A stretch of DNA of 62,180 nucleotides, the filler included. It is 10 parts of 10 records of this genome, joined end to end, with 100 filler letters (N's around TTAATTAATTAA, not from the genome) between each part and the next. Parts side by side here need not be neighbours in the genome. Positions count along the whole stretch, not along the records: positions 1 to 9,442 come from SRR15195285_2622; 9 more parts are not named here. One strand, 5' to 3'. The notes below the pieces were generated by a model, which was given only the letters and a program-made list of their open reading frames with translations, was not told the DNA's origin and did no database searches. Positions 1 to 43,794 of this stretch are shown in pieces; the first letter of the stretch is position 1; each line of letters begins with the position of its first letter. A program made the position numbers and the translations under genes.

Positions 1-3000
1 CGACCTCACCGAGGTATTTGACCTTGCGCTCATTCGTCCAGAGCCACGGGTGTGCCAGTATCTGCTCAGGGGTCGGGCGGGCATACGGTGACCCAGACAG
101 CATCGCGGATAGCACACTGACTTGTTCTGGCGACAGGCTTGCATCGTCTAGAGCTGTGTTGCCATCCAGTGTGTTCTGCTCCACTGTTTCGGCGCTGGTT
201 CCATCGACGGCAAACGGCTCACGACCTTCACTCAGGATAAAGAACAGCGTGCATCCCATCGAGAATATGTCAACTGCAATCGCGTCTTGCACTTGCACAA
301 AGACATCAACCTTCCGTCCATGGACAATTTCTGGCGAACGATAGCCCAATGTTGTGCCTGCAGTGTTGATTCTGGTTGCGACCGCATCCACATTGAGCAA
401 TGTGGCGCAACCGAATCCACACAGCACAGGGATCTGATCATAGCTGAGGAGCACATTATCTGGAGTGATATTGCAGTGCACAAATCCTGCGTCATGGAGC
501 CCTTGAACACCATCAACTATACCACGGCACAGCTTGTCCATCGCGCTTTCACCACTGGTGTAGGAGGAGAGATCGCTGAGAGACCTGTTCACCATAGCAG
601 CACGTACCGAGCATTCGCACGGCGCCATCGCCAAATAATACGTATGTCCATCTTCGTGTGCATGGAACAGATTGATGACATTCGGATGACGGCAGTAAGT
701 CATGATGCTGTCCTCAACGGAAATCAGCTCCCAGTCTGTCTTTCGAATCTTTACAACGCATGGCCTCGGCTCAGCACTTGAGTGGGCTTTGAACTCGCCG
801 CGATAGATCTTGCAGGTGCTACCCTCAGATGCGACGTCGTCACCAGGCTTGTAGAATATACCGACAAGCTGCGTTGTTCGGTACAGACTCAAAGCTCGTG
901 AGACAGCCTCGATTACCACTGCTAGCCCCAGAACAACGACGTTCAATACGATCAGAATGATTCCTACCTCCCGCTCGCGAATCAACTCGCACGAGTCCAC
1001 GAAACCAGTTTTGATCGCCAAGATGCACTGCATAGTGAAAAATAGGCTAGTATCTGCTAGCATGCGCATCTGGTTTGCACGTTGGTCTGCATAGGGCCGC
1101 ACAATAGCATTGACCACTGTGAAGAAGAATGCGATCACCACGCCGGCCAGGATCTGTGTCACACTACCCGCCGGCAACACTGTCAGCAGCGCTGAAAGGC
1201 ACAGTTTTCTCACGAAGTCCACTACCTCGAACCAAAAGTAGGCCGGTTTGTAGTCACGGATCATGAATTGAAATGTGTCTCGATCACCATACCACCAAGG
1301 CTTTCGATTATTCGAATCGGAGCTTTTTGCAGCCGACCAGATTGACGTCGGCTGTTCATCTTCCTGCGCAAGCTCGGTTTGTCCGTGGAGGCGAAGCGAG
1401 CTGTCCATCAGTCGCTTTTTGTTTAGACGAAACACCCACAGTGAACCCACAGGGATCCCAATGGGATACAGCACAAAACACATACACGCTAGGTACCAAT
1501 GGAGCACGTATCTGCCGTTGTCGCAGTCAATTCCATAGTCGTACCGCTGCAGTTCCATTGCAGAGTCGTAGCCAACTTTGTATGACACGCAATTGAGCAT
1601 GTGTACCACGCGTGTGATCAAAAATGGGTAGAAACAGAACAACACGATGAACGCTCTGTTCAGCAAGTTGTTGCTCTGAATTTGTGAGGTAGAATCTAGC
1701 GACGCAGCCGATCCAGACTGCATGCCATGCGCTTCACCGTGGTGGTCTGACACCGATCCCCCAAAAGATTCGGTCAAAGCGGCACTATTTGCATCACTGC
1801 GATTTCGAGGTACTAACTTGTTTGTTAGCTGTCGTACTTTCAAGGACATATCAGTTTTTTCGTACAATATGAGCCCTGCAAGCAATATCGGCACGCACAA
1901 CATAGCGAGTTGGAACTCGGCGAACAAATCTAGTGGATACATGCACTTCACATGCAGGTAACCGAGAATATCGCCTTTCAGGATACGTAGCTTGTCCAGC
2001 ACCAGTTCAAAGCTCGCAGGAAACGTCACAGACATGATGACCGGAAACTGCATTATCACCTGAAAATGAGAAACGATGATCTTGACGTAAACCTGCGCAG
2101 ATGCTTTTTCATCTGCATTTGCACTTGCCGAAACATATCCATGGCGCTCTGCGCTCTTGGACTTTTCACGCCGCTTCTGCTCTGCGATTTTCACGAGCTT
2201 CATCGGCAGGTACAACAGGACCGCGCATCCCAAAAACACAAGTCCTACCAGAACAAGCGCTTGCTCTCCCACGCTTTCTTGTGCGCAAGAGATGCAGAAT
2301 TTAGTGGTTCCACCGACGTAGTCATCCTTTTCAGAACTGCCGGTACATTCGGCGCACAATGGACTCGATGAGCTGTGCCCGTCTCGACAAAGGTAGCGAA
2401 CCGTACTGGAGTTGGATGGCACAAGCCCGGACCAAGAAACCATCATTCCGTCAGTAATCACTGCACTACCTGTGTGATCAAACTTTGTAGATTCGGCAGG
2501 CTTGTAATACTCTTCAAGACGGGACGCAGGTGTCGCACTGGCATCTTTGCGAAGGACAATATCCTGCCTCTCTCGGGACCCGCCACCATATCCTGATGCC
2601 ACTACTGCGTCTAAAAGCACGCTGGCATCATCATTTGCGACAATTGCAGAGCCTTCGTCTTCTTGCATTGCATGGTGCAGCTTCTCGACTGCATGCACTA
2701 GTTCTGCATCAGCTGGTAGAGCGTCTCTGTCGATAGCGAACCACTCACCGAGACACATCCGCGGCATCGGGCACTGGTAAATGTGAACACGTGTACGAAT
2801 ACCGGCTTCGCGTGTCATCATGTCGTACAGACTGCGTTGTTGGAAGTCGACCCTGCCGTAACCAGGCTGTATCAACGGAACTGAAGAGATGCCGTCCGGC
2901 CCTTCAGGGCAGCGCACGCAAGGCTGAAGAGTCGTGTTTGAAACTGGGCACGGTAGGCAGAAAGTTTTTGAAATGTCTGGGCTTATGTCCTCCGGCTCGT

Positions 3001-6000
3001 CCAAACACGAACTATCACACGACAGCTCGATGCGTCTTGCGTCGTAGTAGCCTGGCGCGCACTTGCACACACCATGTACAGCAACCTGCGTGTTCGGGCA
3101 CGGTGCACACCCTGAGTGTTCCGTATTGATAACCTGGTCGCTAGAACACTCGTGGCACTGCTCGCCTCCTACTGAAAATGTACGCCCCGTGCACGCCGTG
3201 CATGCTGTGCAATTATTGGCTGGCTCTGATCCAGCGGGGCAAGGCACGCATGCAGTCTGGTCCGGATTGGCGATATGTCCGTCAGGGCAGACTGTACAAG
3301 ACAGAGAAAAGCCCTGTGCCATAGTACACACGAGACCATGCGGACAGCGGTTTTCTGAACATCCTCCTATTCCAGCTCGAATGCCACCGCCCATATAGAC
3401 CGCGCCATCACTGAACGCAGCGTAAGAGACATGGTACAGGCGAAGAGACTGGAGAGTGTCAAAGTAGATGTCTCGCCCGACGAGATCAACGTTAGTAGCT
3501 GCATTTGCCTGAAACTGCGCGCCCGCAACAGAGACCTGCACAGACGCATCACCGCCAGTGTAAATCCCTCCTCCGTACTGAGCAATTCCCGCGCTGAAAC
3601 TTGCGTTGTTTATGTCAAGGGTTGAGTTGCCGACCAGGCCCAAGGCTCCGCCCGATGTATGTGCCTGGTTGCGCTCAAAGTGTACCTGCTGTGCTACCAG
3701 ATGTGTGCTCTCAATCCATATGCCGCCGCCCATTTCGGCACCATTATCAGAAAAGCGCACGTGCTGTAGCTCCATTAGCTGAGTTTCACAGTGCCAGCGG
3801 CATGACGAGAATATAGCGCCACCTTTGTTGGCCCGATTTCTGATGAACTCTACGTTTTCAATTGTTGCCTCGGTATCGTGAACAAACAAGGCCCCTCCAT
3901 ACTCGGCAGGATTTCCGACAAAGCTCAGAAAACGGATTACCACCCGAACAACGTCTTGCATATGTATTCGACCAGGCGCCCGTACATAAACTGTGTCGTT
4001 GTGCATCAAGTGGCCCTGGATCACTGCTGAGTCACGTGGTTCTGGTACCAACGCGTGTGATGGCACGTAGCTCAAAAGCCAGGCCGAGCTTGTGTCTATG
4101 CTATTCACTGGTAGCAATCCAGATGCTAAGCTGGAGGGAAGGAGTGTGGGCCATGAAGATGTACCGTGATTATATACGTAGGAGCAACTGCGACCTGTTG
4201 GCTCGTCATCTGTGTGTGTGTTCAGTGCGCGAAAACTGTACAAATGAATCATGCACGTGCCATCGGACCCATCTTGGGTAATGGTCAGACTGTCGGAGGG
4301 GCCGTACGTGAATCGCAACGTCTGTCTAGCCGCAGCATGATACTGCGAATATAATACTCGTGTGCTGACAGCCACTGTGATAAGACAAACGGCATTGTCA
4401 TGATGCATTCCGAAATTGATCTCGGCTGTGTTGTATCCAGATGGCAACGATGCCAAAGTCAATGAGCTCATGCAGTCTCCGTGGCACCCAAAGCCAGCTG
4501 CGATGTCCATTGCAGGCACGGGTCAGTCACGCGGTTTAAACTGCGGTGATCACAGAAGGAAGCTGAGCAAGCGCACTAGGTTAGACTCACCAAATGGACC
4601 TTCCGCAGATATACCTGTAGAGCACGTTTGACACAGCCCTCCGTCACACGCACTCGACAGTCCTTGTGTGTAGCAAACTTCGAAGCTATCGATCCTATCT
4701 AGCGTCCAACCGTTCTCCGCAAGCGATCGACACGGCCCAGCTTCATGATGCAGTGCACCACAGTCGTTGTGCGACGGAGTGTTGATTCCATTGCGGCCAA
4801 AATGAGCAACTACGATCGGTGGCGCGTCAACTTCCTCGCAATCCACATGGGTGTGTCGAACCAGTGTCGCTGCATCATACTCGCACGATTCTACACCATT
4901 TGCCATTGGGCTGTAGTTGTTAGCGAGACTGTCAGAACATGCAGCGCGAACACAACTAGTCACATCCACACCTTCGCCGTCACGGATCGATCGTCGTCCC
5001 GCTGGACACTGCAAACATTGTTCAGCAGCATCAGTCCCGCCGCGGTATGTTCCCGCTGGACAAGGCGCACAGATTCTCGACGAAACTTCGACTCCGTTTG
5101 TCAGGTCGTGCGCAATCTCTTCGTACCGCCCTGCAACACACTGTGTGCACTCTGTTGGTGCCACTGAGCCTGTACGCGCAGTGGACCCGGACGGACAGAT
5201 TTCGCAAGTTGTTGCCATCGAGCTCTCTACATCGAGACTGGAAAAGGTGCCGATTGGACACGCAATGCAAGCAGTGCTCGCGTCCTCATCATGATCAAAG
5301 TAGCCCGCAGCACAAGGTCGGCATGTGTCCGATCGGCGCACCGATACAGCGTCAATTAACACAGAATACCCGTATGGTGGGCGCAGAAACTGTTCCACTT
5401 GTTGGTGTGATGTCACGTCTTGACCAGACTGGTACGGTGAAGTGTTTTGAAATCTTATCACCGATGCTGTGGCCACAGCCTCGAATCGCACACTGATCGT
5501 GCTGAAACGATTTTGCAGTTGTCCCGGCCCCCAGATAGGACGGCCGTCGGCATACACGGACAACCGCTCAGCAGCGTCTTCACTTGCTTGCAGCGGCACT
5601 GCAGCGGAAAAGGTGAGCACGTACTGCGACCGTACGTTCAGGCCAGCAACGTTCTGCTCCAGATAGCCGCCCCCGCCAGCGATGGCGACGTAGTAGCTGC
5701 CACTCGGGGCTGTTTGAGCAGGTCGCTCCGCACTGCCCCAAGCGTTGTTGTGCTCGCCCACCGGACTGTACACGAGTACAGCTCCCCAATGCTTCAGCTG
5801 GCTCGACACTCCGCTCCATCCATCAGGTAGCGAAAATGTACCAGCGGTTCGACAGTCGACGTCTGTACACGCATTGCTTTCAAAGTCGCCGTTCACGACC
5901 ACACCCTCGGTCACCTCAGAACCAGGTGGACAAACGAGGCACGCCACCGCACCGATCTCTGTGGTGAATTGGCCAGGCGGGCAGGGAACGCACGCAGTTG

Positions 6001-9000
6001 CTGCGCTACTATCAGCATCATATAGACCAGCCTTGCACGGTGAGCAAGCTGAGTCTGCTTCGGCATCTCCAAGCGCGCTTCCTGCGATGATGACAGCACC
6101 GTTCACAACACCTAGTGTTAACAGCGCGGAAGCATCAGCCACTGAAGGCTCTGGCGCAAGGACCTGTCTGGTTCCTATCGGATTAGTTAGCGTCGCTCCG
6201 GCGCGAATCTGAAGGTTGGCAAGTGCACCCCATGGCTTCGTGCCGTTGTCGGCACTGCCAATTGCGTCGATGGAGAAAGCGCAGCCTAGACTAGGATCAA
6301 TTGTACGTCCAACTAGCTCGCCGTCCACGAAATGAGTGTACTCAGTTCCCGAGCGCGATATTGCCAATTGCCGCCAGGCGGATGCGACACGGGGCTGAAA
6401 TATTGTGATCGAAGTAGCTGGCGCTGCGGCACAAGTCTCAGCTGATTCGCCAGTCAGCTGCAGTCCTGGCAGCACATGACCGCACCGACACTCCTGCTGT
6501 CCACCACCAACATTGCTAGTCGCTGCTGATGAAATACTATCTACCTGTAGCTCATCCTCCGGAATGCAGCAGGTGTTCCCGCAAACATTCCACCCATCGT
6601 CACAGTCTTGATCAAATCCGAGGAACATTGTCGCAATGTGCTTGAGCTGGCCTGCATGATAGAACCCACTTCGGCATGAACTCCCTTCACAAGAGGTACA
6701 GCAGTTATCGTCGGTGTCGGTGCCTCCAAACGGCGATCGCTGTCGGCATGCAGCATGACGGCCGCCTGCGGCACACGGAAGAACATCCCAGCAGCGTGCA
6801 CCAGGGCTATCTGGAAGCCAGAAGCTACAGCCTGCAGCTTGCAAGCAGCTCTGCTCGTCTTCGCATCCGTTGCAATTGTCTGCGCTGCAGTCTGTCGCGA
6901 TTGAATTAGGCTGAGTCCACCCAGTCACACCGTAGTAAGTACCCGGCCCTCTGGCTTCACAGTGCTCGGCACACTCACCAATCGATTCGACTACGATTGG
7001 CGGATAATTACTCGCGCCGTCCCACACGCCATCGCCGGCGGGAACACGGGCAACCGTGATGCTGTAGGCGTTGCCGTGTGCACTCAGTGAATAGATGCCG
7101 CTATCTGGTGCGTTCCAAACATCCGCATTCCACCCCAACATGTCGCCCTGTTCGCTGTAGAGCGGACCAAATCTGCCGCCGCGCTGCTGCGTGGGTGTCC
7201 GCAGATTCGCTGCACCGGTCTGGTTGCGGTCGTCAAACATCCAGAACCGCGGCTGACTCGAGTCGACAGCGAAGATATTCACGTTGCCGATGGCCCAGGC
7301 TTCGTTGTTTGCAGCCTCGTTGACGGTCGATGTCACCCGCAGCACGAGCGAGGCGCCGCTGTACGTGTGCGTCACGTCAACCACAGCCTGACGACTGCCG
7401 CTGTATGTGTCGCTCCACACAAGGTCCTCGCCGATGAAAACCTGAGCGGTCTCTTGGTCCCACGAGCCCCGCGCGTAAAACGTCAGGGACACGTGTACCG
7501 CTGCGGTATGTCCATCGGCGAGGCCAGTGTCGAGCTCGTACTGTGCGGCCCCGCCTCGACCAAACCATCCGAGAACGGCGGATCTCTCAAAGCTAGCCAA
7601 GGTCAAGCTACCACTAGCCAAGGTCAAGCTACCACTGTCTTGCATGCCGCCGGTCCAACCTGCAACAGAGCCGCTGGCAAACGCGTCTGTATATGCGAAT
7701 CCACGCACACATGCAGCGTCAGACCAGGATGCAGCGTCAAACCAGGAGCAACCACTTTGCTGGTTACACTGAGCTCTGTGGGCACAGCTTGGGCAGTACT
7801 CTGAGCATGCCAGTGCCTCGTCGCTGCTTTCGTAGCTGTACATAAATGCATGTGAAACGGAATTGTAGTACGCCGTGCTGCTCGGCCCCCAGCGAGCAAA
7901 CGGCGCGTACCGACCATTGTACTTTGTGTCGGGATGATCCGAGATAAGCACCTCCGCCCAGTCCGACAGATAGCACCCGAGGCTGCTTGACTGTAGCAAG
8001 AAGCTGTCGATAGTACCGTGGTTCCATGCGGAGGTTCCATCACCCTGCACGCACGCTGTTTGCACTTCGACTGTGTAACCTTGTGCATCGCCTCCCCAGC
8101 CACATGAATTTCTGCAGTTGCCCTGTTCATCGGCGTTGCTGCTGCCCGGACAGATGCATCTCCTCTCAGACAGCTTGAAGTTGAATCGTGGCGATCCGTT
8201 GCAGCGCGCGTCACTTAAAACCTGGCGTGCGCACTGTAGTAAATCGGTTGTCTGGTCAAGCTCTGTATAGCCCTCGCAGCAGTACGTTCCTGGGGCGCCT
8301 ATCTGTGTTAAGCAGACGCCATCGTCGCTTGCGACGTCACAAGTGGATGTATCGCATCGATCGTGGCTGTTCCCGGATGCGACACCGCCACCGCCACTGG
8401 ACGTAGCAGTCCTGGACGTAGCAGGTGCTTGCGCAACGCGGCACACTGATGGCATCGATGTAGGGAATCTCGGGTTGACAGTTTCAAGATCCGAATCGTC
8501 CCAACCGCCCCACATACTTCCAGCAAATCCGCCTACGAATTCTGGTAGCGGCGTGATTGAGACATAGTCCTGGCGGCCACCAGAATCATTTGTTCTAGTG
8601 CCACTCGGTTCACCAGTGCACCAGTCAGAATAATCGAATTCGCTCGAGTCAGTGTACATCCAGGTGCCTTCCTCCTCCGCGTCATTTAATCCGATCCAAA
8701 AGCCGAAGCTCCCATCGTACCCCGCCACAGCCTCGATCTCGTCCTGCTGTTCGCGGCTGTGAATGCTCACCAGGTGCCCTCCCAACGATACACACCTCGC
8801 CTCAGCGTCGGGCCAGTTCAAATGATCCGCTGTAAAAACGTAACTGGATTGTCCAGAAACTCGAGCTGGAACATCGAACAACATCCCGTCGGCGTGCCCC
8901 GGCGAGCGGAACCAGCCCTGCAGAGTAAAATCGCCCTGCACTTGCAGGCCCCACTTGCCTAACCGCAATGCATCGCCGACGCCAAACAGAAGTCCGGCCA

Positions 9001-9442
9001 TGCCTTTGTCCGGACCCTCAATGATCGTCGGGTTGCCAATGAGGGACGGTGCCACGGTGGCCTCGGTTCCAGCGATGCACACCCCACAACTACTGGATTC
9101 CGGAGTTGGAGTAAAACCAACTGAGCACGGGCCTGCCTGGTAAACGCTGTTGTGAATGACGGGCGCTCCGTCGTCACCTTCGGATTCACCGCCACACAAG
9201 AACGCAGAGTTGCCCCTGCATGGTTGACTGCAGGCGTCATCGGATCTTGCCCCCCACCGTTCTGGGCTGCAAACACATCTGTCGCCCGGCTGCAACCCAA
9301 AGTGTGTGTGGTCCCGCCCACATGCGGATGCACAGCTCCACGGGTTGGTGATCCCGGAGATGATGACGCGTGCTTCCGGCGCAGCGCCAAGCTCTGCCAG
9401 TTCATGCACTTCGTCGACGCCCGTGCAAACGAAGCCGATCTC
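1..9442 (-). CDS. Giant multipass membrane receptor (>3,100 aa, partial at both ends): WSC, C-type lectin, LamG-like, Cys-rich GCC2/GCC3-type repeats, galactose-binding-like domain, Pmp-like GGAI/FxxN repeats, multipass TM region, IRE1/RNase L-like pseudokinase
   Basis: ORF 4550..9409 is open to the contig end at 9442. An in-frame 93-nt intron at 4498-4590 (GTGAGT...CTGAC...CGCAG) joins it to a stop-free frame running from 4497 to base 1, which the ORF track omits, presumably because it has no stop in the window. Motifs: WSC (CASAC...CRGNSAFLCGG), CTL (NWPDAEARCVSLGGHLVSIHS...FWIGLND), GGALF/GGAIF/GGGIW repeats at ~3520-3950, TM motif DYKPAYFWFEVVDFVRKL at ~1200-1260, and a kinase fold at ~40-840. 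Confidence 0.88.
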
Positions 9443-9542
9443 NNNNNNNNNNNNNNNNNNNNNNNNNNNNNNNNNNNNNNNNNNNNTTAATTAATTAANN
9501 NNNNNNNNNNNNNNNNNNNNNNNNNNNNNNNNNNNNNNNNNN
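9443..9542. other. Artificial contig linker (N44-TTAATTAATTAA-N44). Identical linkers at 12571-12670, 18619-18718, 24827-24926, 33938-34037, 37820-37919, 43860-43959, 47079-47178 and 54162-54261
   Basis: The same 100-bp N/all-frame-stop spacer occurs nine times, and genes are cut at several of them. Confidence 0.99.
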
Positions 9543-10811
9543 CCACCACCGCCGCCGCTGCTGCTGCTGCTACTGCTCGGTGCACTCGAGTTGTCAGCTC
9601 GAGGCAGCAGTGCGTCTCTTCACCCCGAGTCGCGGTACGGCCATTGCAGCGTGCTGGTGGACGACCAACTGTGGGTGATCGGCGGCAGCCAGCGGCTGAC
9701 CGGCACCCTTGACAGTCGCGTTCTGGTGTTCGACCCTGTCTCTAGACAGTACACGCACGCGATGGACGTTGGCTTGCCTGGCCTCGAAGGACATAGCTGC
9801 AGTGTGACACCAGGTGGTTTTGCCGGTGGGTATATGGTCTACATCGTTGGTGGGTGGTCAAATGAGACCGGGATTCCTGCTCCGACGAGAAAGGCATGGA
9901 TGATTCACGCGACGAATGCCCACACTTCAACCACCATGCTGTTGCCCCAGCTTCCCGCACCACTACGTCGTCACAGCGCTGTCGTAACTCAAATGACAGA
10001 GGCGATTTACGTGTGGGGCGGAAGCCATGGCGGCCCTGACAACAGCAACAACACCAACCAACTGCTACGATTGGGACTCAACCCGCGCAGCTCGGCGTGG
10101 GAAATTGTCCTTACCACCGGGACGCCGCCAAGCCCTCGCTATGGCCACACGGCCACGTTGAACAGCTTTGTGTGGCAGCACTTCGAAGGCTACATGGCTG
10201 TTGTGGGGGGGAGGGACTGCAATGCCGGCCCGAACTGCGCAGAGCGTAGTCGGGACGGCTATTTGTCTGACGTCTACGTACTTGACCTTGACAAGTTGAG
10301 CTGGCTTGCCGCCACTCCGGAGATGGGTCCGGGGGGTAAAACAAATGGTCTTGAGGCAAGATACGGGCATACCGCAGTGTTGATTGGCGATGCTGGCACA
10401 GCTCAGCTGTGTGTGCTGGCAGGAACAACCCTCAACAGCAGCTGTGCCGAGCGACACGGTGGAGACGTCAGTGGCTGTGTGTATCACAGTGACGAAATCT
10501 TGTGCACTCATTCGGGTTGGCAGACGGGCAATGCACACTGGAGTACGGTCCCAGCTGTAACTGGTCACGGTCCAATATCCCGCGACCGACACACAACAAC
10601 CCTTGTCTCGCGGCCAAGCGCGCCGTGTGTCGACTGCGGTCACGGTGAGCCTAGACCGGTCACCCATGAATATCGCTGGCTAGACGCAGGTGGCTTTCAT
10701 AGCGGCAGCCCGATCAGCACCAAAAAAATATATGGATATGGTGTGCACGAACTGCACTTTGCACCTGGGGTTGTAAACCCGTGGAGTTGGACACCTGTAT
10801 GGCCGGAGTAA
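9543..10811 (+). CDS. Secreted Kelch-repeat beta-propeller protein, 5' truncated
   Basis: About six Kelch repeats (RYGHCSV...LWVIGG, RRHSAV...IYVWGG, PSPRYGHTA...AVVGG). The frame is open to the contig start through a poly-Leu, signal-peptide-like stretch. Confidence 0.85.
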   Translation, partial: PPPPPLLLLLLLGALELSARGSSASLHPESRYGHCSVLVDDQLWVIGGSQRLTGTLDSRVLVFDPVSRQYTHAMDVGLPGLEGHSCSVTPGGFAGGYMVYIVGGWSNETGIPAPTRKAWMIHATNAHTSTTMLLPQLPAPLRRHSAVVTQMTEAIYVWGGSHGGPDNSNNTNQLLRLGLNPRSSAWEIVLTTGTPPSPRYGHTATLNSFVWQHFEGYMAVVGGRDCNAGPNCAERSRDGYLSDVYVLDLDKLSWLAATPEMGPGGKTNGLEARYGHTAVLIGDAGTAQLCVLAGTTLNSSCAERHGGDVSGCVYHSDEILCTHSGWQTGNAHWSTVPAVTGHGPISRDRHTTTLVSRPSAPCVDCGHGEPRPVTHEYRWLDAGGFHSGSPISTKKIYGYGVHELHFAPGVVNPWSWTPVWPE

Positions 10812-17954: not shown

Positions 17955-18937
17955 CGCATCGCCATTCCACCGAGCAGCAGCATTAGATCCAGCGGCAGTG
18001 GGCGGCCGCGTCGTGTGTCGACACAGGGGGCCGTTCATAGTCATCGCCGCCACACAGTAGCCACACAGTAGCCCCACTCTCGGGCTCGGTAAGACCAAGT
18101 ACAGTGTAGCAGTCCCTGCCCTGTGCACACGGCGCGGTGTGCTCAGCTCAGCTCACGCGGCCGATGGCGCATATCAATATGTACACCACGAGCACGCCAC
18201 TGAAGGGGGCAGGGCGTCGGCAGCACACCGTCCACGAGTCTCGCCCTGTCCCGCAGCGCCGGCTCCTCTACTCTCTATCGGGGCACTATGGTACTACAGT
18301 AGATCTACTGCAGTGTGTGTACACTACAGTGTAGCCTATAGTGACACTATCGGCTGGTGGTGCAGCTCCTTGTCCCTGTTCCCGTTCTGGTTCTGGTTGT
18401 ACGTACTAGTAGCCCAGCTGTGCCGACCGTCGGTGTGCCGACCGTACGTGGCGCTGCATGCCCAAGTGCCAATTGGAATTGCTTGTATGCGCCCAACGGC
18501 CAATTTGGGCGGTTGCTGCCGCATGCGCCGGGATGCTTTTTAGACAATCCCCAGCAAGCAGGCAGGGTTATCACGAATTTCTCGCTACAGGGGCCGCCCG
18601 TTCTCCGCGGAGGGTTATNNNNNNNNNNNNNNNNNNNNNNNNNNNNNNNNNNNNNNNNNNNNTTAATTAATTAANNNNNNNNNNNNNNNNNNNNNNNNNN
18701 NNNNNNNNNNNNNNNNNNCACGTGCTCAGGCACAGGACAAGGGCGTTTGCTGAGGGGCGGCCGACTCGTCTGGATCAGAGGACGAGCGCCTTCCTTCGCA
18801 CCGGCTGCTCGCTCGCTGCTCCCGCACAGCTTCCTTGGGGGCCCCAAGGTACGCTTGAGACGGCCCTTGCAAGGACCCTTGCTGTTCTGGTGGTGCGCGG
18901 CTCAGGCCCGTCGTGCAGTGCCCCGGGGAGGGGGGGG

Positions 18938-21900
18938 ATGGCTCGTGATGTCACGAGCCACGCACCGGATTCATCAGAGAAAGGCAGTGAGGGCGTGGCG
19001 CCGGGCACCATCGTCAAGTGCACAGCCAACCCGGTGGACACCCCTAGCCCTGGAGGAAAGACTCGGAGATCTAGCAAAGGCAGGGGTGGGCGCGGTGGGA
19101 GGGGAGGGAGGGGAGGAAAAGCGAAAGGGCGCGCCCCCTCGCGCGTAGCCACTGCCGCCGCTGAAACAGGCGCAGCGACGGCCACTGTGGCGCAGCCTCA
19201 GGCGCTCTCGCCGCGTCGCACGCACCGCGTGGAATACCTCGACCCTCCATCCCAAATTTCGACCACGCCGCAGGAGATGCCAGCGCAGTGCGGCACGATA
19301 GAGACGGAGGCTGCGCAGGAAAGTACAGAAGTGCCAGCGGTGGTGCCCGAGGCTGACACCAGCGCCGCCACCTCCGAAGGTTCCAGCAGTCACGAGGACG
19401 ACGGTGACAGTCAAGTGCCACAGACGCCAGCGCGGGAGGTCGGGGTGACGTCGGTATCTCCGCCGGTAGAAACGCCTTCAGGTTCCGCTGGAGAAGCAGG
19501 TGAGGGGTGCGCAGCCGACATGGGCGACCAATGGGTCACTAAACTCTCAGGGAAGTGGCGGGCGTTCGGTTGGGACGAAAACGGTCCCGGCCTGGAGGAG
19601 CTGCTCATGCTCGAGGTCACGGCCGATGGCACCATATCAGGAATCGTTGACGATGGCGACGGAGTCATGGGTGGTGATGCAGGCGACTGCAAAATTGAGA
19701 ACGGCCACGCCGACACTGCGACGCGGTGCGTGGCCTTCGACCAAGTCTACGACGACGGTGCCGTGACCCGGTGGGAGGCGACATACGACGCGGAGAAGGA
19801 CCAGCTGAAAGCAGGAATATGGACAGGAGAATGCGTCGGTGGCTTTGAGGCCAACCGAGATACCGGCGAGCAGATGCATTCGCTGCACGGCTACCGCGCC
19901 TGTTCGCCACGAGTTGTTGTGTATGTTGCCCCGAGCTCGACTATCGAGCCCACCGGACAGCTTGGGCTGGGAGTCACAGCGGTGAGCAGCATGACGCACC
20001 ACGACGAGTCCAGCGGGACGCAGTGGGTGCAGCTGCTGGTCAAAGAAGATCCGCAGGCAAAGATCCAGAAGGTCTGGGCCATGGTACGCGACGGTGCAGG
20101 TGCCGTGCAGCTCTGCCGGGCGCCAGAAGTCGACGGAACGGGCATCGACGCGATCATTTCACCTCTAGGACCAACGGCGGAGGACCTGACGGAGCAGTTG
20201 CTGTCAGAGCGCGAACAACGCGAGGTAGAACTCGAGCAGATGCGTACACGTCACCGCGAAGAGCTAGAGACTCACCAAGAACAGCTGCACTCAGAGAACA
20301 TGGCACACGAAGCTGCGGTGCATGAGCTTACGCAGCAGAAGGATGCAGAGCTGGCTGCGAGGCGCGAGGAGCACGAAGCTGCATCACGGCGAATAACAGA
20401 GACCTTGACCGAACAGCTGCGTGCTGAGACCGAGGCTCGAACAATTGCACAGAATCGTCTAATCGCCATGACTCAGAGAAAGGACGAGCTGAGTTGGTCT
20501 TTGAGTAGGGCGGATGCTCTAAGCGCACGCTTGCAAGCACAGCTCGAGGAGGTGAATTCTGAGGCCGCGCGGGAGAACTCAGATCCAACCCACGAACCGC
20601 TGCTGGCGCAGGCCGCTTTTGAGCTTGCTGACACTGACAACGATGGGGTTGTTGATGCTGCTGACATCCTGGCCTGGCACAGGGCAGAGTTGGCACTGCC
20701 TGACGATACACCGAAATCTACCGAATCGATCCTCGCATTAATTGAAGAATACGGCTGGGAGTTCGACGACAGCGAAGTGAAAAGCCCGAGTGGCGAGGCA
20801 GCAGTAGGACCATCAGCGTTTGCACAGATCAGGAAGCACTTAATTGCAGAAGTTGATCGCGGCAAAGCTACTGCTGCTGCCAAGCTTTTGCAGCAACATC
20901 GTGAGAAGTATGAGGCGCGTCTAGCGCAAGCTGCGTTTCATCGTGCTGACCAAGATGACGACGGCGCTGTCGATGCCGCGGACATTGTCAAATGGTATGC
21001 AGCAGAGCTAGCGCTACCCGGCGACCCCCCGAAGCTTCTGGATGAGTTGGAGGGTATGATTGCAGAAATAGGCTGGGAGTTTGATGACGAGGAGGTACAG
21101 AGCTCGCGAGGCAATAAGGCAGTCGGGCTTCAGGCTTTCATAGAAATTCGGAGGCAACTGAAAGCTGAAACAGATGCGCGCGCATCGGCCCTAGAAAAGA
21201 ATCTCCACGAACAGCGAAAGGAGCGCGGTGTCGCGGTGGAGCACACTGTGCTCGTTGATGCATTGGAAGAGATGGCAGCAATAGAGGACGCGAACATGGA
21301 GAAAGATGCCACTATAACTGAATTGCGACAAGAGTTGGAACAGACTATCAGTGACAAGGATGCTGAGCGTGCGGACGCACTATCTACAATGCAACAGTTC
21401 ATGGACGAGGACAAGTATGAGACTAGTCAGGTTATGCAGCAGCAGATCGATGGTCAGCTCGGGATCCTGCTAGAAAGCATCAATAAGGTAGGCAACAAAT
21501 CTGCAGCTGGTGTCGACGAGACGAAATCTGAGGTGATCAACTTCTTACGAAAGTCCAACAACGAGAAAGCCGACTCAATCGTGCAGCTGCAAAAGCTGGT
21601 AGCCGATCTCGAAGCAGCGATCAAGGCTGGGGAGCAACACCAGCGCGACATGTTCGAGCGCGGCTGGACTGCAGCCCGAGTCGAACAATCGAAAGGACCT
21701 GCCCCTGAGCAATCAGAACCACTGGGGTCAGACGCAATTAGTACCAATGACCAGATGCTCCAGGAGATGACTGCAAAGGACGGGGAAGAAGCGCAACGGC
21801 AGATCCTTACGCTTGAGGAGAAGCTCGCAAGGGCCGAGGAGACGCTAGCGAATGCGCTAGCGCGAGAACAGGAGCTGGAAGACGCGCTCGCCGAAGCAGT

Positions 21901-22264
21901 TTTGACAAGTCAGAAGCCGACTGGTGAGCTGGAGCACCAGAAGCCTCCACCGGAGGAAGCGCAGCCACAGCTGGAGCTTTCACAGCCCGAAACGAGTGTT
22001 GAACGTGCAGCTCGGCTGATTTTCGAACGTTTCGACAACGATGGCGATGGATTCCATAGCCTGAAGGAGACTGAAGCCCTTGCGCTTGTATTGCACGATG
22101 TACGCGTGAGCAAATCTGATTTCATTGCGCTGTGCGAAGACCTCGGCGCCGATGATGAGAAGGGGATTTCCATCAATGAGTTCAAGCTGATCTACACTGA
22201 TCCGAGCTTTGAGGCTGATGCGGAGGCAGATTATCGACGGGTGTTTGGGGCGGCACTGAGATAA
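18938..22264 (+). CDS. Large coiled-coil EF-hand protein with an RGG stretch and a duplicated EF-hand module
   Basis: 1180-aa ORF with first ATG at 18938. EF loops DTDNDGVVDAAD, DQDDDGAVDAAD and DNDGDGFHSLKE; GRGGRGGRGGRGGK; long E/Q/K-rich heptads. Confidence 0.8.
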   Translation: MARDVTSHAPDSSEKGSEGVAPGTIVKCTANPVDTPSPGGKTRRSSKGRGGRGGRGGRGGKAKGRAPSRVATAAAETGAATATVAQPQALSPRRTHRVEYLDPPSQISTTPQEMPAQCGTIETEAAQESTEVPAVVPEADTSAATSEGSSSHEDDGDSQVPQTPAREVGVTSVSPPVETPSGSAGEAGEGCAADMGDQWVTKLSGKWRAFGWDENGPGLEELLMLEVTADGTISGIVDDGDGVMGGDAGDCKIENGHADTATRCVAFDQVYDDGAVTRWEATYDAEKDQLKAGIWTGECVGGFEANRDTGEQMHSLHGYRACSPRVVVYVAPSSTIEPTGQLGLGVTAVSSMTHHDESSGTQWVQLLVKEDPQAKIQKVWAMVRDGAGAVQLCRAPEVDGTGIDAIISPLGPTAEDLTEQLLSEREQREVELEQMRTRHREELETHQEQLHSENMAHEAAVHELTQQKDAELAARREEHEAASRRITETLTEQLRAETEARTIAQNRLIAMTQRKDELSWSLSRADALSARLQAQLEEVNSEAARENSDPTHEPLLAQAAFELADTDNDGVVDAADILAWHRAELALPDDTPKSTESILALIEEYGWEFDDSEVKSPSGEAAVGPSAFAQIRKHLIAEVDRGKATAAAKLLQQHREKYEARLAQAAFHRADQDDDGAVDAADIVKWYAAELALPGDPPKLLDELEGMIAEIGWEFDDEEVQSSRGNKAVGLQAFIEIRRQLKAETDARASALEKNLHEQRKERGVAVEHTVLVDALEEMAAIEDANMEKDATITELRQELEQTISDKDAERADALSTMQQFMDEDKYETSQVMQQQIDGQLGILLESINKVGNKSAAGVDETKSEVINFLRKSNNEKADSIVQLQKLVADLEAAIKAGEQHQRDMFERGWTAARVEQSKGPAPEQSEPLGSDAISTNDQMLQEMTAKDGEEAQRQILTLEEKLARAEETLANALAREQELEDALAEAVLTSQKPTGELEHQKPPPEEAQPQLELSQPETSVERAARLIFERFDNDGDGFHSLKETEALALVLHDVRVSKSDFIALCEDLGADDEKGISINEFKLIYTDPSFEADAEADYRRVFGAALR

Positions 22265-37819: not shown

Positions 37820-37920
37820 NNNNNNNNNNNNNNNNNNNNNNNNNNNNNNNNNNNNNNNNNNNNTTAATTAATTAANNNNNNNNNNNNNNNNNNNNNNNNN
37901 NNNNNNNNNNNNNNNNNNNT

Positions 37921-39750
37921 AGAGTCAGCGCGGGCGCGGTGCAGCAGCAGCAGCAGCCAGCCACCAGCTGCGGCACAGGTGGGGCTCTGAAGCATGTGGC
38001 TGTGCACATCTTCAGCGATATGGAGCAGGCTGACTTGCTTGGAGAGTCGTTCCGGACAGATCAGCAGGTGGTTGCTGAGCTGGAACCGCACAGCTCTTTG
38101 CAGACTGCCAGCGTTGTGCTGGATCTCGAGGGATCTAACAGCAATCGGGCAAATGACAACTGCAGGAACCTCGCTACAGACGCATCGCAGGCCGAAGTTG
38201 TGGATCGCTTCAGGGCCGTGAGAATTTGGGCGCCACACCGTGTCTTGTCACAGTTCGTGATAGACACTTGCCGCGCGTGCCTTCCACTAACTCCTGCGCC
38301 CGAGCCACGCGAGCAACACGACCGGCACTGCTCAGTATCGTCTGCGGCACTCGATAATGGCCGACCAGGTGTCGTGTTAGGAGCCAACAGCACCATTCTC
38401 GATCTCAATGCTGGAACAGGCGTGTGTGGCGTGTTTGCTTCGCACGCATTAGCAGCGATGGGTAACGACGGTCACGTGTACCTGGCCGACCGTTGCACGG
38501 CTACACTTCCACTGCTTGAGCTCAACACCGGGCTGAACAAATACAGACGACGCACAAGCGTTTGCAAGCTCGGCTTAGCGCCTCTTGCCAAGCCATCGGC
38601 ACGTTTTGAGTTGCAAGGTGTTGGTGGGGTAGTTGCCCCCAAAGATGCGTCTATTGATGCGATCATTTCTGTGCTCGACTCATTTGACGATGATGACGGC
38701 AGAGGCACCAAAGTAAATCAGCTTTGGAGTGTAATTCATCGGTACCTGTCCACGTCTCCGAGTGCTTGGGTAGCATTGGCGTGTGTTGAAGCTAGTACCT
38801 TGCATATGTGCGAGGATGGTGAGGTTGTTGGCATCAAGCGGAAGTCGCGGCCCGAGTGTGACAGTACGAACATTTGCGGGCACGAGTCGCTGTCAGAGGT
38901 TGCGAGGTGGGTGCTTGGGGAGGCCAGCCCCCATGGATTCGAGTTGCACCACTCCCAGCCAACAGTTCGTTGTTTACCTGGCGCACACCGAGAACGGAGT
39001 ATTAGGGTGCTTGTGTTCATCAGGAAGCGATCACATCAGCCACAGCCAACAGACAGTGTGCTTGCTCCAGCCTTTGCCGCTGTAGCATCGCGGTTGTCGT
39101 CACTCTCGCGTGCACTGTTGCTTGACCGCTGCGATCCCTCACATGTCAGGGCGGACGAATTGCTCGACAGCATCGATGCAATTTCTCCGTCGGACAGGGC
39201 TGCAGCACGCCTTGTGCTCCACGGCTCTGTCAATCGGGCAGTTCACCGAGTGATGGCGCTGGACGCAACACAGTGTGAAGTGCTTTGCGATTACTGTCGG
39301 GGTCATCTTCAGATGGAGCCAGATAGTGTCGACGGCGCACCAGATTCTCAGGTGCAGCTGACATTAGCGGAACTTCGAAAATTGCTCGGCTCTGAGACTA
39401 CGCGAGACCTATTGCGGCTCCCTGCTGTGGCAGGCCTGATGGAGGAAGCTCAGTGGAGTGGCGCAGTTGACTGCTTTCTCCGTCGGTACACTGCACGAAC
39501 TCGACCATTCATTCCCTTCCACTGCGATGGTGCAGCTGCAACAGTGAACGTCGCATTAACCCCCAGTGGGATTGGGGGAGAGCTGTTGTGTTTGCATTCG
39601 GGCAGGGTGATTGTCGAGCAGCGGTGTCAAGGGGAGGCGACTGTGCACCCTGCAGGGCTACTCCACGGGGTGACGCGACTGGAAACCAGCGCGCAAGAAC
39701 GCTTCACTATGATACTTTTCTTTGAGCCACCACCGGTGCAGGCCAAGTAA
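37921..39750 (+). CDS. Class I SAM methyltransferase (family-16-like) fused to a 2OG-Fe(II) oxygenase; 5' end uncertain or truncated
   Basis: RIWAP...ILDLNAGTGVCG...VYLAD...LLELN in the N-terminal half. FLRRY...FHCD...TVNVAL...GGEL...LLHGVT...RFTMILFF in the C-terminal half (HxD...H...R). Confidence 0.75.
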   Translation, partial: RVSAGAVQQQQQPATSCGTGGALKHVAVHIFSDMEQADLLGESFRTDQQVVAELEPHSSLQTASVVLDLEGSNSNRANDNCRNLATDASQAEVVDRFRAVRIWAPHRVLSQFVIDTCRACLPLTPAPEPREQHDRHCSVSSAALDNGRPGVVLGANSTILDLNAGTGVCGVFASHALAAMGNDGHVYLADRCTATLPLLELNTGLNKYRRRTSVCKLGLAPLAKPSARFELQGVGGVVAPKDASIDAIISVLDSFDDDDGRGTKVNQLWSVIHRYLSTSPSAWVALACVEASTLHMCEDGEVVGIKRKSRPECDSTNICGHESLSEVARWVLGEASPHGFELHHSQPTVRCLPGAHRERSIRVLVFIRKRSHQPQPTDSVLAPAFAAVASRLSSLSRALLLDRCDPSHVRADELLDSIDAISPSDRAAARLVLHGSVNRAVHRVMALDATQCEVLCDYCRGHLQMEPDSVDGAPDSQVQLTLAELRKLLGSETTRDLLRLPAVAGLMEEAQWSGAVDCFLRRYTARTRPFIPFHCDGAAATVNVALTPSGIGGELLCLHSGRVIVEQRCQGEATVHPAGLLHGVTRLETSAQERFTMILFFEPPPVQAK

Positions 39751-39885: not shown

Positions 39886-42800
39886 TTATAGCTCTACCTG
39901 GTACGCCTCACACCAGGTGTTTAACACCTGCTCACCTAGAAGCCATGATGCATTATTGAGCCGCAGTCTCACCACGGCGACATAGACTACTTCGACGACT
40001 GTCGGCTGTACCACCTCATGGCAGGCTGGTATTGTCCTCTTTCCTCTTCTTGCAGTGTGCCTGCATGTCGCCGAATGTGCCCTGAGGCCCAATGAATGCC
40101 AACGCTGGCATGTAGAACAGCATCGCGATCCCTGTGCATAGCAACGCCGTTTCAGAGTTCGTTTGTAAAAGAGTGCTGGAGTCGGAAACGAGGTGATTGA
40201 CATGCCGCGCACGCACCAATAGACGACGCGATCGTCACCATGATGAGGACACTGAATTTCACGAAAAATATGAGCTGAGTGAAAACGAGGAACAACCCAG
40301 ATCCGAACGTCGTAACGGCGCCGGAGAAAACAGTTCCACCCATGGACTTCAAAGCGAAAGTCACACGCTCCTCGCGGGTGTTGAGTGGCGGGTCACGGTG
40401 ACCAGCCTCAACGTAGACGTGTGAGAGGTGGACCACATAGTCAACGGAGAATCCGATCACGATCACCGCAGCGATCGATTCGGCAATACCAAGACCCCAG
40501 CCCATTGCCCAGTGGCAGAATCCAAGAACAGATGCAACGATACCCATCACGGCAACGATGGCGATCGTCGCCAGCCACAAGTTGCGCGTCGCAACAAGCA
40601 ACACCACATAGGCACACGGGAAGCAGATTGCGAACCCGACGAAGACATTGGTAACAAGTTGCGCCTCTGTGAAGGTCCAGGTCCAGAAGACTCCACCGGA
40701 GTGGATGATTGTGCCAATGCTCAAATTAGCTTCCGTCGCACTGGCTTCCAAACGTTCACATAGCTCGTCGAACGCCCAGAAGACTGGCTCAGTGATTGCA
40801 TTTGGTTGGAACTCCTGCAGCGTCGACCGAACTGAGATCTGTGCATACTTGAGCTTGACACCGCCGTCGTTGATCAGGCCGATCATGCTCATCGCGCTAT
40901 TCCCTGCAGGAGTGGTGTCACGGAAGCTCGTCACGTCAGCCAGGAATGAGCTCCCGGTGCATGCCTTGCCTTCGTCGGCACAGTACTCCTTGAACTGCTG
41001 CATCCAACACATGCCGTCTTTCCACACGTCGCGCCGAGTGCATGTGTTTTCCGCAGGATTCCATTTGCATGCCCCAGCCCCCTCACACGCATCTTGGCTG
41101 GCAGACGCACTACTGCATGCATTTTCGGCCCCGATGCACGTTTGTCCGTCAGGGGCACCACAAATCTCGTCCGATGTCAGGGGCATCACAAGGGTGTCAC
41201 CCAGACAACCCTCGAGAGTACATTTCTCGGCGATCAATGCATCGCAAGCATCCAAGAAGAATCGCTGTGCTGCTGGCGAGGAGAGATCGAAACTCTCGTC
41301 GAATTCAGTATAACCACGGTCTGACGCGTCCCAGAAGATTTTGTCTGAACGATCCATACCTTTCAGACCGAGAGCGATTTTTACAGGAATATACTGGTCT
41401 TCCGCAGCGGATGCAAATGTGGCCATACTGTCGACAATCTTTTGGTACATGTGGTCTTCAGGGAACCACTTCTCTTGCTCGGTCGGTGGCTCCAGTTGCA
41501 GTGCCATGGCGATGCAGAAGATGATGTAGATTAAACCAGAGATGCTCATGCAGCCGGCCACTGGCCGCTTGGTGATGCAAGGGGCGTACTTGTCCTTGAA
41601 AAAACGGTCCATCCCTCTCAGAATTTCCTCATCCTCCGCACCTTGTGCCGTTTGGTCTTTGCCTTCGACAAAGTTGTTCGTCTGTGCTGTGACCACAGCC
41701 GGCAGGCTGTACGGCTGCTGACAGCAGCAGACAGCTTCGTCGCGCTTGTGGCAAGCTGGGATGGAGATCAGGTTGATGCACTGCTCGACACCGCCGGGCA
41801 GTCGCGCACAGCAGCCGTAGAGCTTGTAGTGCCAGATCATCAGCACACACGGGAACAGAGTGATGGCGAGAATGTAATTCAAGAAGACCCCCAACGCAGC
41901 GTAGATCCCGAAGCTCGCGATCGGCATAATCGGCGAGACAGCTGTAGCCATGAAGGCCACGCAGGTAGTGCTTGATGTGGCACCCATAGCGTACACAGCG
42001 CGCTTGAAGGTCGCGTCGAGGCGGTCGGCCGTGTTCTTGTACTGGTTGATGGACTGGTTCCAGCCATCCATGAACACGAAAATGTCGTCCGCACCGATGC
42101 CAAGCACGAGGTAAATTGCCAGCACGTGCAGTTGGTTGAAGAATGTCACCTGGAAGACTCCGCGGTAAAAGAACAGTGCGAGGGGGAGAGTGAGCATAAT
42201 CTGCAACATTCCCAGACTACCGATGAAGAGTGTGCCCGTGTAAAATGCAATGTAGTAGTAGACAAACAAGATGGACGCCATGGTGAACGAGAGGTCTTGA
42301 TAGGAGATGCGGGTGAACTCCAGGTCCTGCATCGCGAAACCCCACCACATGACTTCAACGCACCCATCGCCTTTGCACGCCTCAGGTGGCATCAACGCTT
42401 CGGCACGCATTGCTGACGAAATGGCGCTGCCAGTTTGATCGAGGCCATAATAGCTGAAGAGCGCGCCCTCGAGATCATAGTAGAAGGTGCTGATCTTCTT
42501 CTGCTGCTCGTCTCCTTGCAGTGGACGGTCCGTGTATCCTTGCAGGGGCCAAGCCATGTAAATCAGCTCGCGAGTTTTCTTGACGTCCGGCGGAGCGGCG
42601 ATGGAGTCTGTCTCTGTGAACCGATCGCAGCGAAAGGGGCAGAGATCCTCCAGTTTTGTTCCGGTGGGTATTGTGTCAGGTTGGACTCCAGCGAGGCTGT
42701 TCAGCGCTGTAGCATCCGCGCTACAATCGAGTGCACCCAAGTCCACACTGTCCACAGCGACAGTAGACTCTGAGATGAATTTTACAGCTGCGTAACAGCC

Positions 42801-43794
42801 CTCAGTGAGTGCATTCTTCAAGTCACCCGGCGTGGTCATTGCTCCTCCGAGTTGTTTTACCAGGTGTGCGTGTTCTTCGCACCCTTGCGGCATTACGAGC
42901 TCAGTCTTGCCTTCCGGTGGCGACAGGTAGAATGTCATTGGCGAGGTTGGATCGGCAGCTGCTGCGCAGAGCAGATCGTGGGCGTAGTACTCCACGCGGT
43001 CCGCGTCGAGCAGCGTGCAGCGCGACGCCCCTCCTGCTGGGCACGTGTAGGATAGACCACGGGAGCCAGGTTGAGCGTCCATGTCAATGTGCTCGTCCCA
43101 GCGGAGCTCCTTCGTCGTGCCAGGGTCGGCGTGGGTGCAGGACTGCAAGTTGCCAGCCATGGTGGTTTGATCGAACGGGTAGAAGAGATCGCTGACCAGC
43201 GGCAGAGGACCGGTGGTGCAGTCGTCCTCAAAAGAGCCAGTGGGTTCGGCGGATGGGTTTTTGAGGAGGCACATTCCTGGGTACGCGTCTGTTCGCTTCG
43301 CCCCCACCGTGCCGGCGTAATCTGGCCGCCCGGCCGCGAATTGGTCCGCTTCGATCAGAAGGGCTTCGGCCTTGCATATGCTCTGGATATTCGCTGCGGT
43401 GAACACGTTCGGGCCGTCTGCTGTGAAAACCTGAAAGAACTTGTTGCGCTCCCCGAGGTTCGAGCGCTCCGGGACCTCTGTGGCGGCGGCGCCGCCGGGC
43501 TTTTCGATCATTTTCTCCGAGCTTGTGATCGCGTCCACCATGTTGGACGCCTGTGTCGACGAGATCGTGAAGTCGTAGTCTGAATTCGGTGTGAGCTCTG
43601 CCCACTGGCCGGCGATCATCACGAGCACCAGAATCACGAACATGTTGATCGCGAACATCTGCAGAGACAGCATCCGATCAGGCGGTACTGGCACTGGCAG
43701 ACGAGGCCGCGCGAGGGTGCGGCATACGAGAGGACAAGCGGTGCCACTCACGACGCAGGGGCGCGTGGCGACCAGCTCCGGGTATTTCCACATC
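39886..43794 (-). CDS. Dispatched/Patched/NPC1-family RND-type sterol-sensing-domain membrane protein, 5' truncated
   Basis: Two TM clusters with GIGADDIFV and GFSVDYVVH motifs and two large Cys-containing loops. Introns at 43659-43751 and ~40135-40216; last exon ends at 39886. Confidence 0.9.

Follow-up and report, generated by a model that had tools for sequence, protein, structure and literature searches.

The first part of a joined stretch of 62,180 nucleotides, the window of this study, carries on its minus strand (positions 1-9442, from record SRR15195285_2622) most of one gene of a marine protist, which on balance probably encodes a receptor-coupled ribonuclease (RNase) that works independently of phosphorylation. 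The product would be a multipass membrane protein of more than 3100 residues, with a pseudokinase of the IRE1 type following its predicted membrane-spanning part. Two sensors are known to act through KEN ribonucleases: IRE1, a single-pass protein that reports stress in the endoplasmic reticulum (ER), and RNase L, which is soluble and antiviral. Judging from the sequences of its relatives, this copy very probably continues to the left of base 1 into a KEN (HEPN) ribonuclease domain, diverged and about 200 residues long. We describe in turn the pseudokinase, the family to which it belongs, the tail that its relatives carry and the gene itself, and then weigh this reading against the alternatives.

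The pseudokinase

An earlier note, made from the letters of the window alone, had taken the kinase fold at the 3' end of the gene for an IRE1/RNase L-type pseudokinase; the domain is indeed of the IRE1 type and a pseudokinase. The domain lies at 38..868 on the minus strand (Pfam Pkinase, 99.4 bits). When the last 300 residues of the window protein were compared with the sequences of the PDB, 663 of which matched, yeast IRE1 came first (2.8e-25, 92.5 bits), the best match outside IRE1 being a calcium-dependent protein kinase (CDPK) at 1.6e-20, and human IRE1 scored 62-64 bits. The alignment to IRE1 extends through HPWLW..KVKYLG, which is the IRE1 junction between kinase and KEN. With a profile built from 12 family sequences, all 16 IRE1 sequences lead (3.9e-44 to 1.4e-35), followed by PLK4 at 2.1e-27; RNase L was absent among the 60 best PDB sequence matches both of the window query and of the family profile. 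The strings of residues that had drawn attention to the domain are all found in place, namely VASEGSTCKIY at 803-835, CVVK at 749-760, HPNVI at 674-688, DIFSMGCTLFFILSEGREPF at 212-271, HPWLW at 38-52 and TNERKVKYLGEV at 2-37.

The dead state of the kinase is read from its motifs. The beta3 Lys is present at 749-751, HCN stands in place of HRD (within 455-481) and GFG in place of DFG (within 404-421), all on the minus strand. A census of 18 family kinases found the HRD Asp replaced by Asn and the DFG Asp by Gly in every one of them, and the beta3 Lys and the alphaC Glu each retained in 16 of 16 (two rows being gapped); the Gly-rich loop is degenerate. Among 51 canonical KEN-bearing kinases, by comparison, each of the two Asp residues is kept in 50. 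Judged by these residues, the window kinase is catalytically dead, with the Lys-Glu pair retained.

A family of relatives

With the last 508 residues as query, HMMER was run exhaustively against 1.84 billion representatives and returned 21 matches at 1e-30 or better. The best relatives share the last membrane helices and the pseudokinase, with 37-51% identity over full-length matches and 68-70% in short fragments; at least 57 of the 150 matches listed are canonical kinases with KEN, as recognised by a hidden Markov model of 7 canonical tails. Three paralogues, P0003, P0029 and P0030, come from a single EukProt set, Picozoa sp. COSAG02, and the other relatives are marine metagenome contigs from JGI, ENA, Logan and NCBI. 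The search has yielded a family that shares the transmembrane (TM) block and the pseudokinase, such as the earlier note had proposed to look for in protist genomes. The closest proteins in word-based searches were P0045 at 68% identity and P0033 at 80% identity over a quarter of the query; in the 'near' and 'longer' length ranges of those searches a protein of this very locus was not found.

Four independent assemblies (P0032, P0041, P0044 and P0003) agree in placing the TM block before the pseudokinase and the pseudokinase before the tail, and a fusion created by chimeric assembly is for that reason unlikely. The outer modules differ from copy to copy: P0044 has CUB and leucine-rich repeat (LRR) modules and the window gene WSC-like, C-type lectin and PMP modules. 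As far as its sequences describe it, this is a multi-copy family in which the predicted TM block, the pseudokinase and the KEN tail are constant and the outer domains are not, as is typical of diversified recognition receptors.

When 102 kinase domains, with no named RNase L among them, were placed in a quick maximum-likelihood tree, the window grouped with 13 tail-bearing relatives and 5 further rows (four fragments and P0001, the window's own frame) in a clade with a support of 95 in the Shimodaira-Hasegawa-like approximate likelihood ratio test (SH-aLRT) and a stem of 0.83. A second group, with support 94, holds the 51 canonical KEN kinases and 4 others. A weak and short branch (SH-aLRT 82, length 0.031) unites both groups with two small pairs, apart from 23 other kinases. 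The family forms a clade of its own beside the canonical KEN-bearing kinases, at a joining support of 82, and does not lie inside their clade. The tree is compatible with an affinity to IRE1 without proving it.

Some further sequences came to light in the same searches. A scan of metagenome contigs with the alignment as query gave 11 loci at 23-36% identity, none of them useful: nine are ordinary kinases with HRD intact in the matched open reading frame (ORF) and mostly bacterial-looking, one (L010) has merely a 115-residue ORF at the match, and one (L007) is a TRP-like fragment. P0049, from a cluster of 16 members mostly 515 residues long, is a pseudokinase-tail protein found on at least 12 metagenome contigs and lacking a hydrophobic N-terminus; it may represent one exon or a soluble version of the protein. 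P0056 (Exaiptasia, 1992 residues) and P0063 (Styela, 1524 residues) are large invertebrate proteins with a kinase and a canonical KEN, and one of the two bears the name of an ankyrin-repeat protein, an indication that RNase L-like architectures exist outside vertebrates.

The KEN-type tail of the relatives

All 15 relatives that extend at least 150 residues past the junction carry one common conserved tail, of which the junction region forms the first helix. The motif R-N-x3-7-H occurs in 13 of the 15, some 113-141 residues past the junction, and a PFPWLL helix then follows. In the parts of the HEPN survey available to us the RNase motif is given as Rx4-6H (PMC3710099), and on that definition 12 of the 13 motif-bearing tails fit, the remaining one, P0034, being Rx7H. 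Across a 13-sequence alignment at 35-41% pairwise identity the motif Arg and Asn are invariant and the His is nearly so.

Profile comparison and structure prediction both lead from this tail to KEN. With hhalign, 11 family tails matched 7 canonical IRE1 tails at a probability of 97.4 (E 9e-12, 123 columns), and without the shared junction at a probability of 88.3 (E 2.9e-6, score 44.2), the best score among one reversed and 20 column-shuffled controls being 17.4. The alignment of the two groups leaves the family tail with an insert of about 30-35 residues relative to canonical KEN. An AlphaFold2 model of P0077 (kinase C-lobe and tail), made without templates from a 14-row family alignment, reached a predicted local distance difference test score (pLDDT) of 79.7, with tail blocks mostly at 85-97. 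All its Foldseek matches down to rank 50 are IRE1 structures (best E 2.8e-6), and VIA-align places its residues 2-288 on residues 732-963 of human IRE1 (Z 16.8, root-mean-square deviation 3.6 Å, 220 residues), other kinases aligning to model residues 1-108 only.

A tail-only AlphaFold2 model of P0180 (pLDDT 78.9) likewise retrieved IRE1 at all Foldseek ranks from 1 to 47 (E 5.4e-3 to 0.1). When this model was compared, independently of Foldseek, with 48,161 PDB representatives, just two chains rose above Z 5, yeast Ire1 3fbv_A (Z 10.2, 147 residues, chain 957-1108) and RNase L 4o1o_A (Z 9.1, 125 residues, chain 571-722), and the next stood at 3.8. The training of AlphaFold2 included IRE1 structures, so that the models are not fully independent; the sequence-level tests are. 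In the ESM Atlas the tail of P0003 matched PF06479-bearing clusters at 0.87-0.89, below the 0.9 mark, which makes it a lead only.

The window copy itself reaches the beginning of this tail. Its kinase-to-KEN junction, HPWLW TNERKVKYLGEV, at 2..52 on the minus strand, aligns to the IRE1 junction, and the frame is still open where the protein breaks off at base 2, its last residues being KVKYLGEV. The relative P0029, which is 51% identical over 390 residues, also reads KVKYLGEV at this place and then enters the KEN-like tail; since these residues are identical in a protein that continues into the tail, a KEN-type domain very probably lies just left of base 1. When just the final 30 or 50 residues of the window protein were given to Pfam, PF06479 was not matched.

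Gene structure

The minus strand has a frame of 1507 codons without a stop at 2..4522, still open where the window ends, and another of 1646 codons without a stop at 4550..9490. A putative intron of 93 nt in phase 1 (4498..4590, GTGAGT...TCGCAG), which contains the in-frame stop at 4550-4552, separates an upstream exon of about 1617 codons (4591..9442), coding for the outer region, from a downstream exon (2..4497) with a PMP-repeat and Cys-rich region, the multipass block and the pseudokinase. Joining 9442-4591 to 4497-2 gives 9348 nt, that is 3116 codons with 0 stops, and the splice from the stop-free minus frame at 4497 to the upstream ORF, as proposed before, would be an in-frame GT..AG join. 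The delimitation of the upstream exon rests on its open frame, on the contig linker that borders it and on in-frame insertions and deletions in the population; that of the downstream exon rests on a frame which is open at the window edge.

Both ends of the gene are missing, the 5' side being cut by the contig end and the 3' side by the window edge. The upstream frame reaches no start codon and enters the runs of N that flank the TTAATTAATTAA linker at 9443-9541. As this linker occurs 9 times in the window vs 0 expected, the window is a series of short, unrelated contigs strung together, and the 5' end of the gene was lost at the end of one of them.

Data from seawater bear on the coding nature of the locus. 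Metagenome contigs with 90-100% identity to the window span 27-28 of 30 bins, and the population variants among them have net length differences of 3, 9, 3, 3, 3, 18, 18 and 3, the first of 18 nt being composed of 8+7+3 at 7607-7625; all are multiples of 3, as is expected of coding sequence. Poly-A metatranscriptome contigs (run X18) cover 585-843, 1005-1160, 1565-2016, 2669-2871 and 5937-6260, with DNA carry-over possible. A seawater contig of 902 nt (run X2) extends 481 nt past base 1. In run X1 one 'opposite strands' contig joint is seen at 6572/6626, and loose ends at 107 and 5826 resemble library adapter sequence; the joint and the adapter-like ends suggest amplification or assembly artefacts in that data set.

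Outer region and membrane block

From the N-terminal side, the Pfam order upstream of the intron is a partial WSC-like module, C-type lectin, about 500 unmatched residues, a weak LamG-like stretch and Cys-rich repeats; 3' of the intron it is a PMP-type repeat, further Cys-rich modules, TRP PF06011 and Pkinase. The WSC-like module (9188..9346, minus; PF01822, E 7.4e-6) is partial, covering profile positions 26-82 of 82; it scores 26.5 bits vs a cut-off of 27.8, and the domain is truncated by the contig end. The C-type lectin domain (8588..8821, minus; PF00059, E 3e-12, 47.7 bits) is matched at 44.8-47.7 bits, above the cut-off of 22.6, and sugar binding is predicted for it from sequence. Within 6503-8002 (minus), 500 residues of the outer region had no Pfam match at E up to 5. 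Cys-rich repeats resembling Ephrin-receptor and TNFR-ELAPOR1 modules occupy 4994..6055 (minus), with PF07699 in 5 stretches (57.1 bits) and PF23091 at 33.1 bits vs a cut-off of 33.2. A Chlamydia-PMP-type repeat lies at 3803..3856 (minus; PF02415, 25.2 bits vs a cut-off of 20.6); the matches to this family score 23.8-25.2 bits, and frame residues of about 190-380 around the repeat resemble the same repeat. The earlier note had listed WSC, C-type lectin, LamG and Pmp-like repeats: the lectin and the PMP repeats are confirmed, WSC stands just below its cut-off, and LamG is not confirmed (Laminin_G_3 PF13385, 14.7 bits and E 0.034 vs a cut-off of 27.6 bits).

The multipass block had been placed at about 910-2260, and hydropathy agrees, with 8 hydrophobic peaks and possibly a 9th at 911..2257 (minus), which are residues 756-1204 of the downstream frame. 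The C-terminal half of the block matches the Pfam TRP family PF06011 at 884-1345 (minus; residues 1060-1213) with 37.3 bits vs a cut-off of 28.5; the relatives score 16-26.5 bits against this family. One relative, P0032, has 34.6% identity over 1009 residues to the frame that bears the membrane block.

Alternative readings

A number of observations speak against a receptor-coupled ribonuclease, and they are best considered with the explanations that they would favour. Several concern the activity of the tail. Where IRE1 has a Tyr that we take to be an active-site residue, the family tail has Ala (hhalign). No relative reaches the PF06479 cut-off of 23.3 bits among the 10 proteins scanned; 5 of them match, always at profile positions 58-116 with 17.4-21.6 bits, and the other 5 have no match at E<=0.01. 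The KEN domain first supposed for the gene is supported in the family by the tail in all 15 extended relatives and by the profile and model matches, but not at that cut-off. The tail model of P0180 found no Foldseek match at E<=0.001. In P0045, from a cluster of 4 members, Cys takes the place of the motif Arg (CNFDAH) and the tail end diverges after '...KAGR'; the gene caller may have read through an intron left unspliced, or the copy may be degenerate. The tail of P0003 is aberrant, disturbed after 'IRNG': phmmer against the PDB ends at the junction, and Pfam at E up to 10 gives no KEN. As P0045 and P0003 illustrate, single copies can be degenerate, and the RNase may be altered in specificity, or inactive in some copies. 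Further, the degenerate Gly-rich loop and the loss of the DFG Asp make nucleotide binding doubtful, and nucleotide binding supports dimerisation in IRE1 and RNase L.

One could accordingly suppose that the RNase fold was retained for dimerisation or RNA binding, and that the tail is the non-catalytic scaffold or gating element of a TRP-like channel or adhesion protein. The membrane block scores above the PF06011 cut-off; proteins with a giant outer region and a TRP block exist without a kinase, for example Triparma P0028; the kinase is dead, the position of the IRE1 Tyr is Ala, and the motif is not intact in 2 of 15 tails. We nevertheless consider this explanation unlikely, given that Arg and Asn are invariant and His nearly so at a pairwise identity of 35-41% (13 sequences), and that the presence of R-N-x3-7-H in 13 of 15 tails is the conservation expected of an active site.

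Other points concern the window copy, whose own KEN domain would lie outside the window. This particular copy might have lost its KEN domain or carry it truncated, as a pseudogene or through an effect of assembly: P0045, with its Cys for the motif Arg and its diverging end, is the closest tail-bearing relative (68% identity over the last 114 residues), the window is a patchwork of short contigs, and there is the one inverted joint at 6572/6626. Such a loss is nonetheless improbable. The frame is open to the last base, its final 8 residues recur unchanged in P0029 ahead of the tail, the tail is present in 15 of 15 extended relatives, and a metagenome contig runs on for 481 nt past base 1.

The continuity of the gene across the intron raises a separate question. 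Among the metatranscriptome contigs that match the window none covers the intron at 4498-4590 or the interval 4411-4725, and no homologue among the relatives compared with the frames of the gene bridges the proposed intron, as might be if the intron were not real and a secreted lectin protein stopping at 4550-4552 stood beside a separate TM-pseudokinase gene. That there are two genes is decidedly improbable, however, in view of the canonical GTGAGT..CAG ends, the exact in-frame join and 3116 codons without a stop; moreover, the downstream frame opens with Cys-rich outer modules and has neither a plausible start nor a signal peptide, and so needs the upstream exon.

Two last points bear on the membrane and on descent. 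With 8 clear peaks both ends of the protein would lie on the same side of the membrane, which leaves the topology ambiguous, and the weaker ninth helix is required if the outer region and the kinase are to face opposite sides. The kinase tree sets the family apart on a long stem, as a clade weakly joined to the canonical KEN kinases. That the gene is no more than the ordinary IRE1 of its lineage, an ER-resident sensor of unfolded proteins with an unusually large luminal part, is highly improbable: IRE1 is indeed the nearest solved relative, but Pfam scans of the window frames, at the thresholds used, found none of the PQQ-type luminal domains (PF13360/PF13570) that are listed for animal IRE1s, the predicted protein is multipass and not single-pass, all 18 family kinases examined have lost the catalytic Asp residues, organisms have several paralogues each, with differing outer domains, and the family clade is separate from the group with all 51 canonical KEN-bearing kinases.

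A possible mode of action

Returning to the receptor-coupled ribonuclease, KEN RNases become active on the pairing of their kinase or pseudokinase domains, and a sequence of events can be proposed by analogy with IRE1 and RNase L. The outer region, made up of Cys-rich modules and modules predicted to bind carbohydrate, would be mounted on the PF06011 TRP-like block of 8-9 membrane helices, with the pseudokinase in the cytosol. A ligand or a mechanical stimulus would cluster or rearrange the membrane part and thereby bring the pseudokinase-KEN modules together, as happens in IRE1 and RNase L; a composite RNase site would then be switched on without phosphotransfer, as in RNase L, and cytosolic RNA would be cleaved as a signalling or shut-down output. 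Taken as a whole, this mechanism is a plausible proposal that we would stop just short of calling probable. A two-copy complex prediction for the pseudokinase-tail of P0029 had a score of 0.00, from a run that left the alignment unused and was made without controls, and so speaks neither for nor against such pairing. The location at the cell surface, the sensing of glycans and a role in immunity, prey sensing or cell death are matters that we infer.

More speculative is the suggestion that these proteins are lineage-expanded 'receptor ribonucleases' of picozoan-like marine protists, in which variable recognition domains of lectin, WSC, CUB, LRR and Cys-rich type, mounted on a TRP-like multipass core, would directly activate a KEN RNase in the cytosol by way of a nucleotide-independent pseudokinase. 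If it were true, they would be a membrane-receptor counterpart of RNase L for the sensing of prey, viruses or self versus non-self, and the output module of IRE1 and RNase L would have been recruited to the cell surface outside animals.

Other frames in the window

The remainder of the window contains a number of other frames. Six-frame-stop TTAATTAATTAA linkers lie in runs of N at 9443-9541, 12615, 18663, 24871, 33982, 37864, 43904, 47123 and 54206; as they join contigs of 3-9 kb, genes lying side by side in the window do not do so in the genome. A 1251-codon frame at 40155-43907 (minus) has a sterol-sensing or Patched-type domain (PF12349, 51.5 bits; PF02460, 48.7 bits), and a frame at 45229-47130 (minus) combines a WW domain with an ordinary protein kinase (Pkinase, 190.5 bits). 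Five frames of eukaryote type were noted at 9498-10808 (plus), 18674-22261 (plus), 49078-51384 (plus), 51651-54209 (minus) and 57923-60898 (plus), their types being Kelch propeller, EF-hand protein, RanBP1/NUP50, IQ-motif protein and Ion_trans_2 channel. The frame at 37876-39747 matched no Pfam family.

Comparison with known systems

The effector module is a known one; what is new is its membrane context, the pseudokinase state outside RNase L and the expansion of the family. In the parts of the HEPN survey available to us, KEN is described in fusion only to kinase, ankyrin, CCCH, ubiquitin-like and BRCT modules, besides solo forms (PMC3710099), and searches in the main texts of open-access papers and bioRxiv preprints turned up no account of KEN, or of an IRE1-type module, in a protein that is multipass or bears a lectin domain. 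If a pseudokinase-KEN unit stands behind a multipass, channel-like receptor whose outer domains (lectin, LRR or CUB) can be exchanged, the KEN RNase would be wired in a third way, and this would show that pseudokinase-gated activation of KEN arose, or was retained, outside vertebrates. The family would also offer a testable candidate for how an uncultured lineage of heterotrophic picoeukaryotes couples recognition of the outside to responses at the level of RNA. For annotation it holds a warning, in that the PF06479 cut-off misses all the family members scanned.

IRE1 is the nearest solved kinase relative and has the same kinase-to-KEN junction; in the models the KEN-fold tail of the relatives is packed on the C-lobe in like manner, and the R-N-x3-H motif and the FP.LL helix are common to both. 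The differences are nonetheless extensive. The family kinase is dead, with HRD Asp replaced by Asn and DFG Asp by Gly, whereas that of IRE1 is active; a multipass TRP-like block takes the place of one TM helix, and a lectin and Cys-rich outer region the place of the luminal sensor. The family KEN, moreover, is longer by an insert of some 30-35 residues and has Ala in place of the Tyr, and the family is multi-copy and forms its own clade.

With RNase L the family shares the fusion of a pseudokinase to KEN, which would make activation independent of phosphotransfer, and the tail-only model matches the RNase L KEN (Z 9.1). RNase L, however, is soluble, with an ankyrin-pseudokinase-KEN order, and is activated by 2-5A, whereas the family protein is predicted to be embedded in the membrane; Pfam scans of the window frames, which lack the true N-terminus of the gene, and of a set of relatives matched no ankyrin family. 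Exaiptasia P0056, of the invertebrate ankyrin-kinase-KEN type, likewise places a non-IRE1 front end before a KEN-bearing kinase, but its HRD is intact and it falls in the canonical KEN group.

On the membrane side, the closest parallels are the PF06011 proteins of the fungal Flc/Pkd2 type, whose family cut-off the membrane block exceeds, and Triparma P0028, which has Cys-rich and lectin-like outer modules with the same TRP block; none of these has a kinase or a KEN tail. Plant lectin receptor kinases, as the sources available to us describe them, are a functional analogue only: they too are expanded families in which a lectin outer domain is coupled to a cytosolic kinase-fold output, but they are single-pass proteins with an active kinase of an unrelated kinase family and no RNase.

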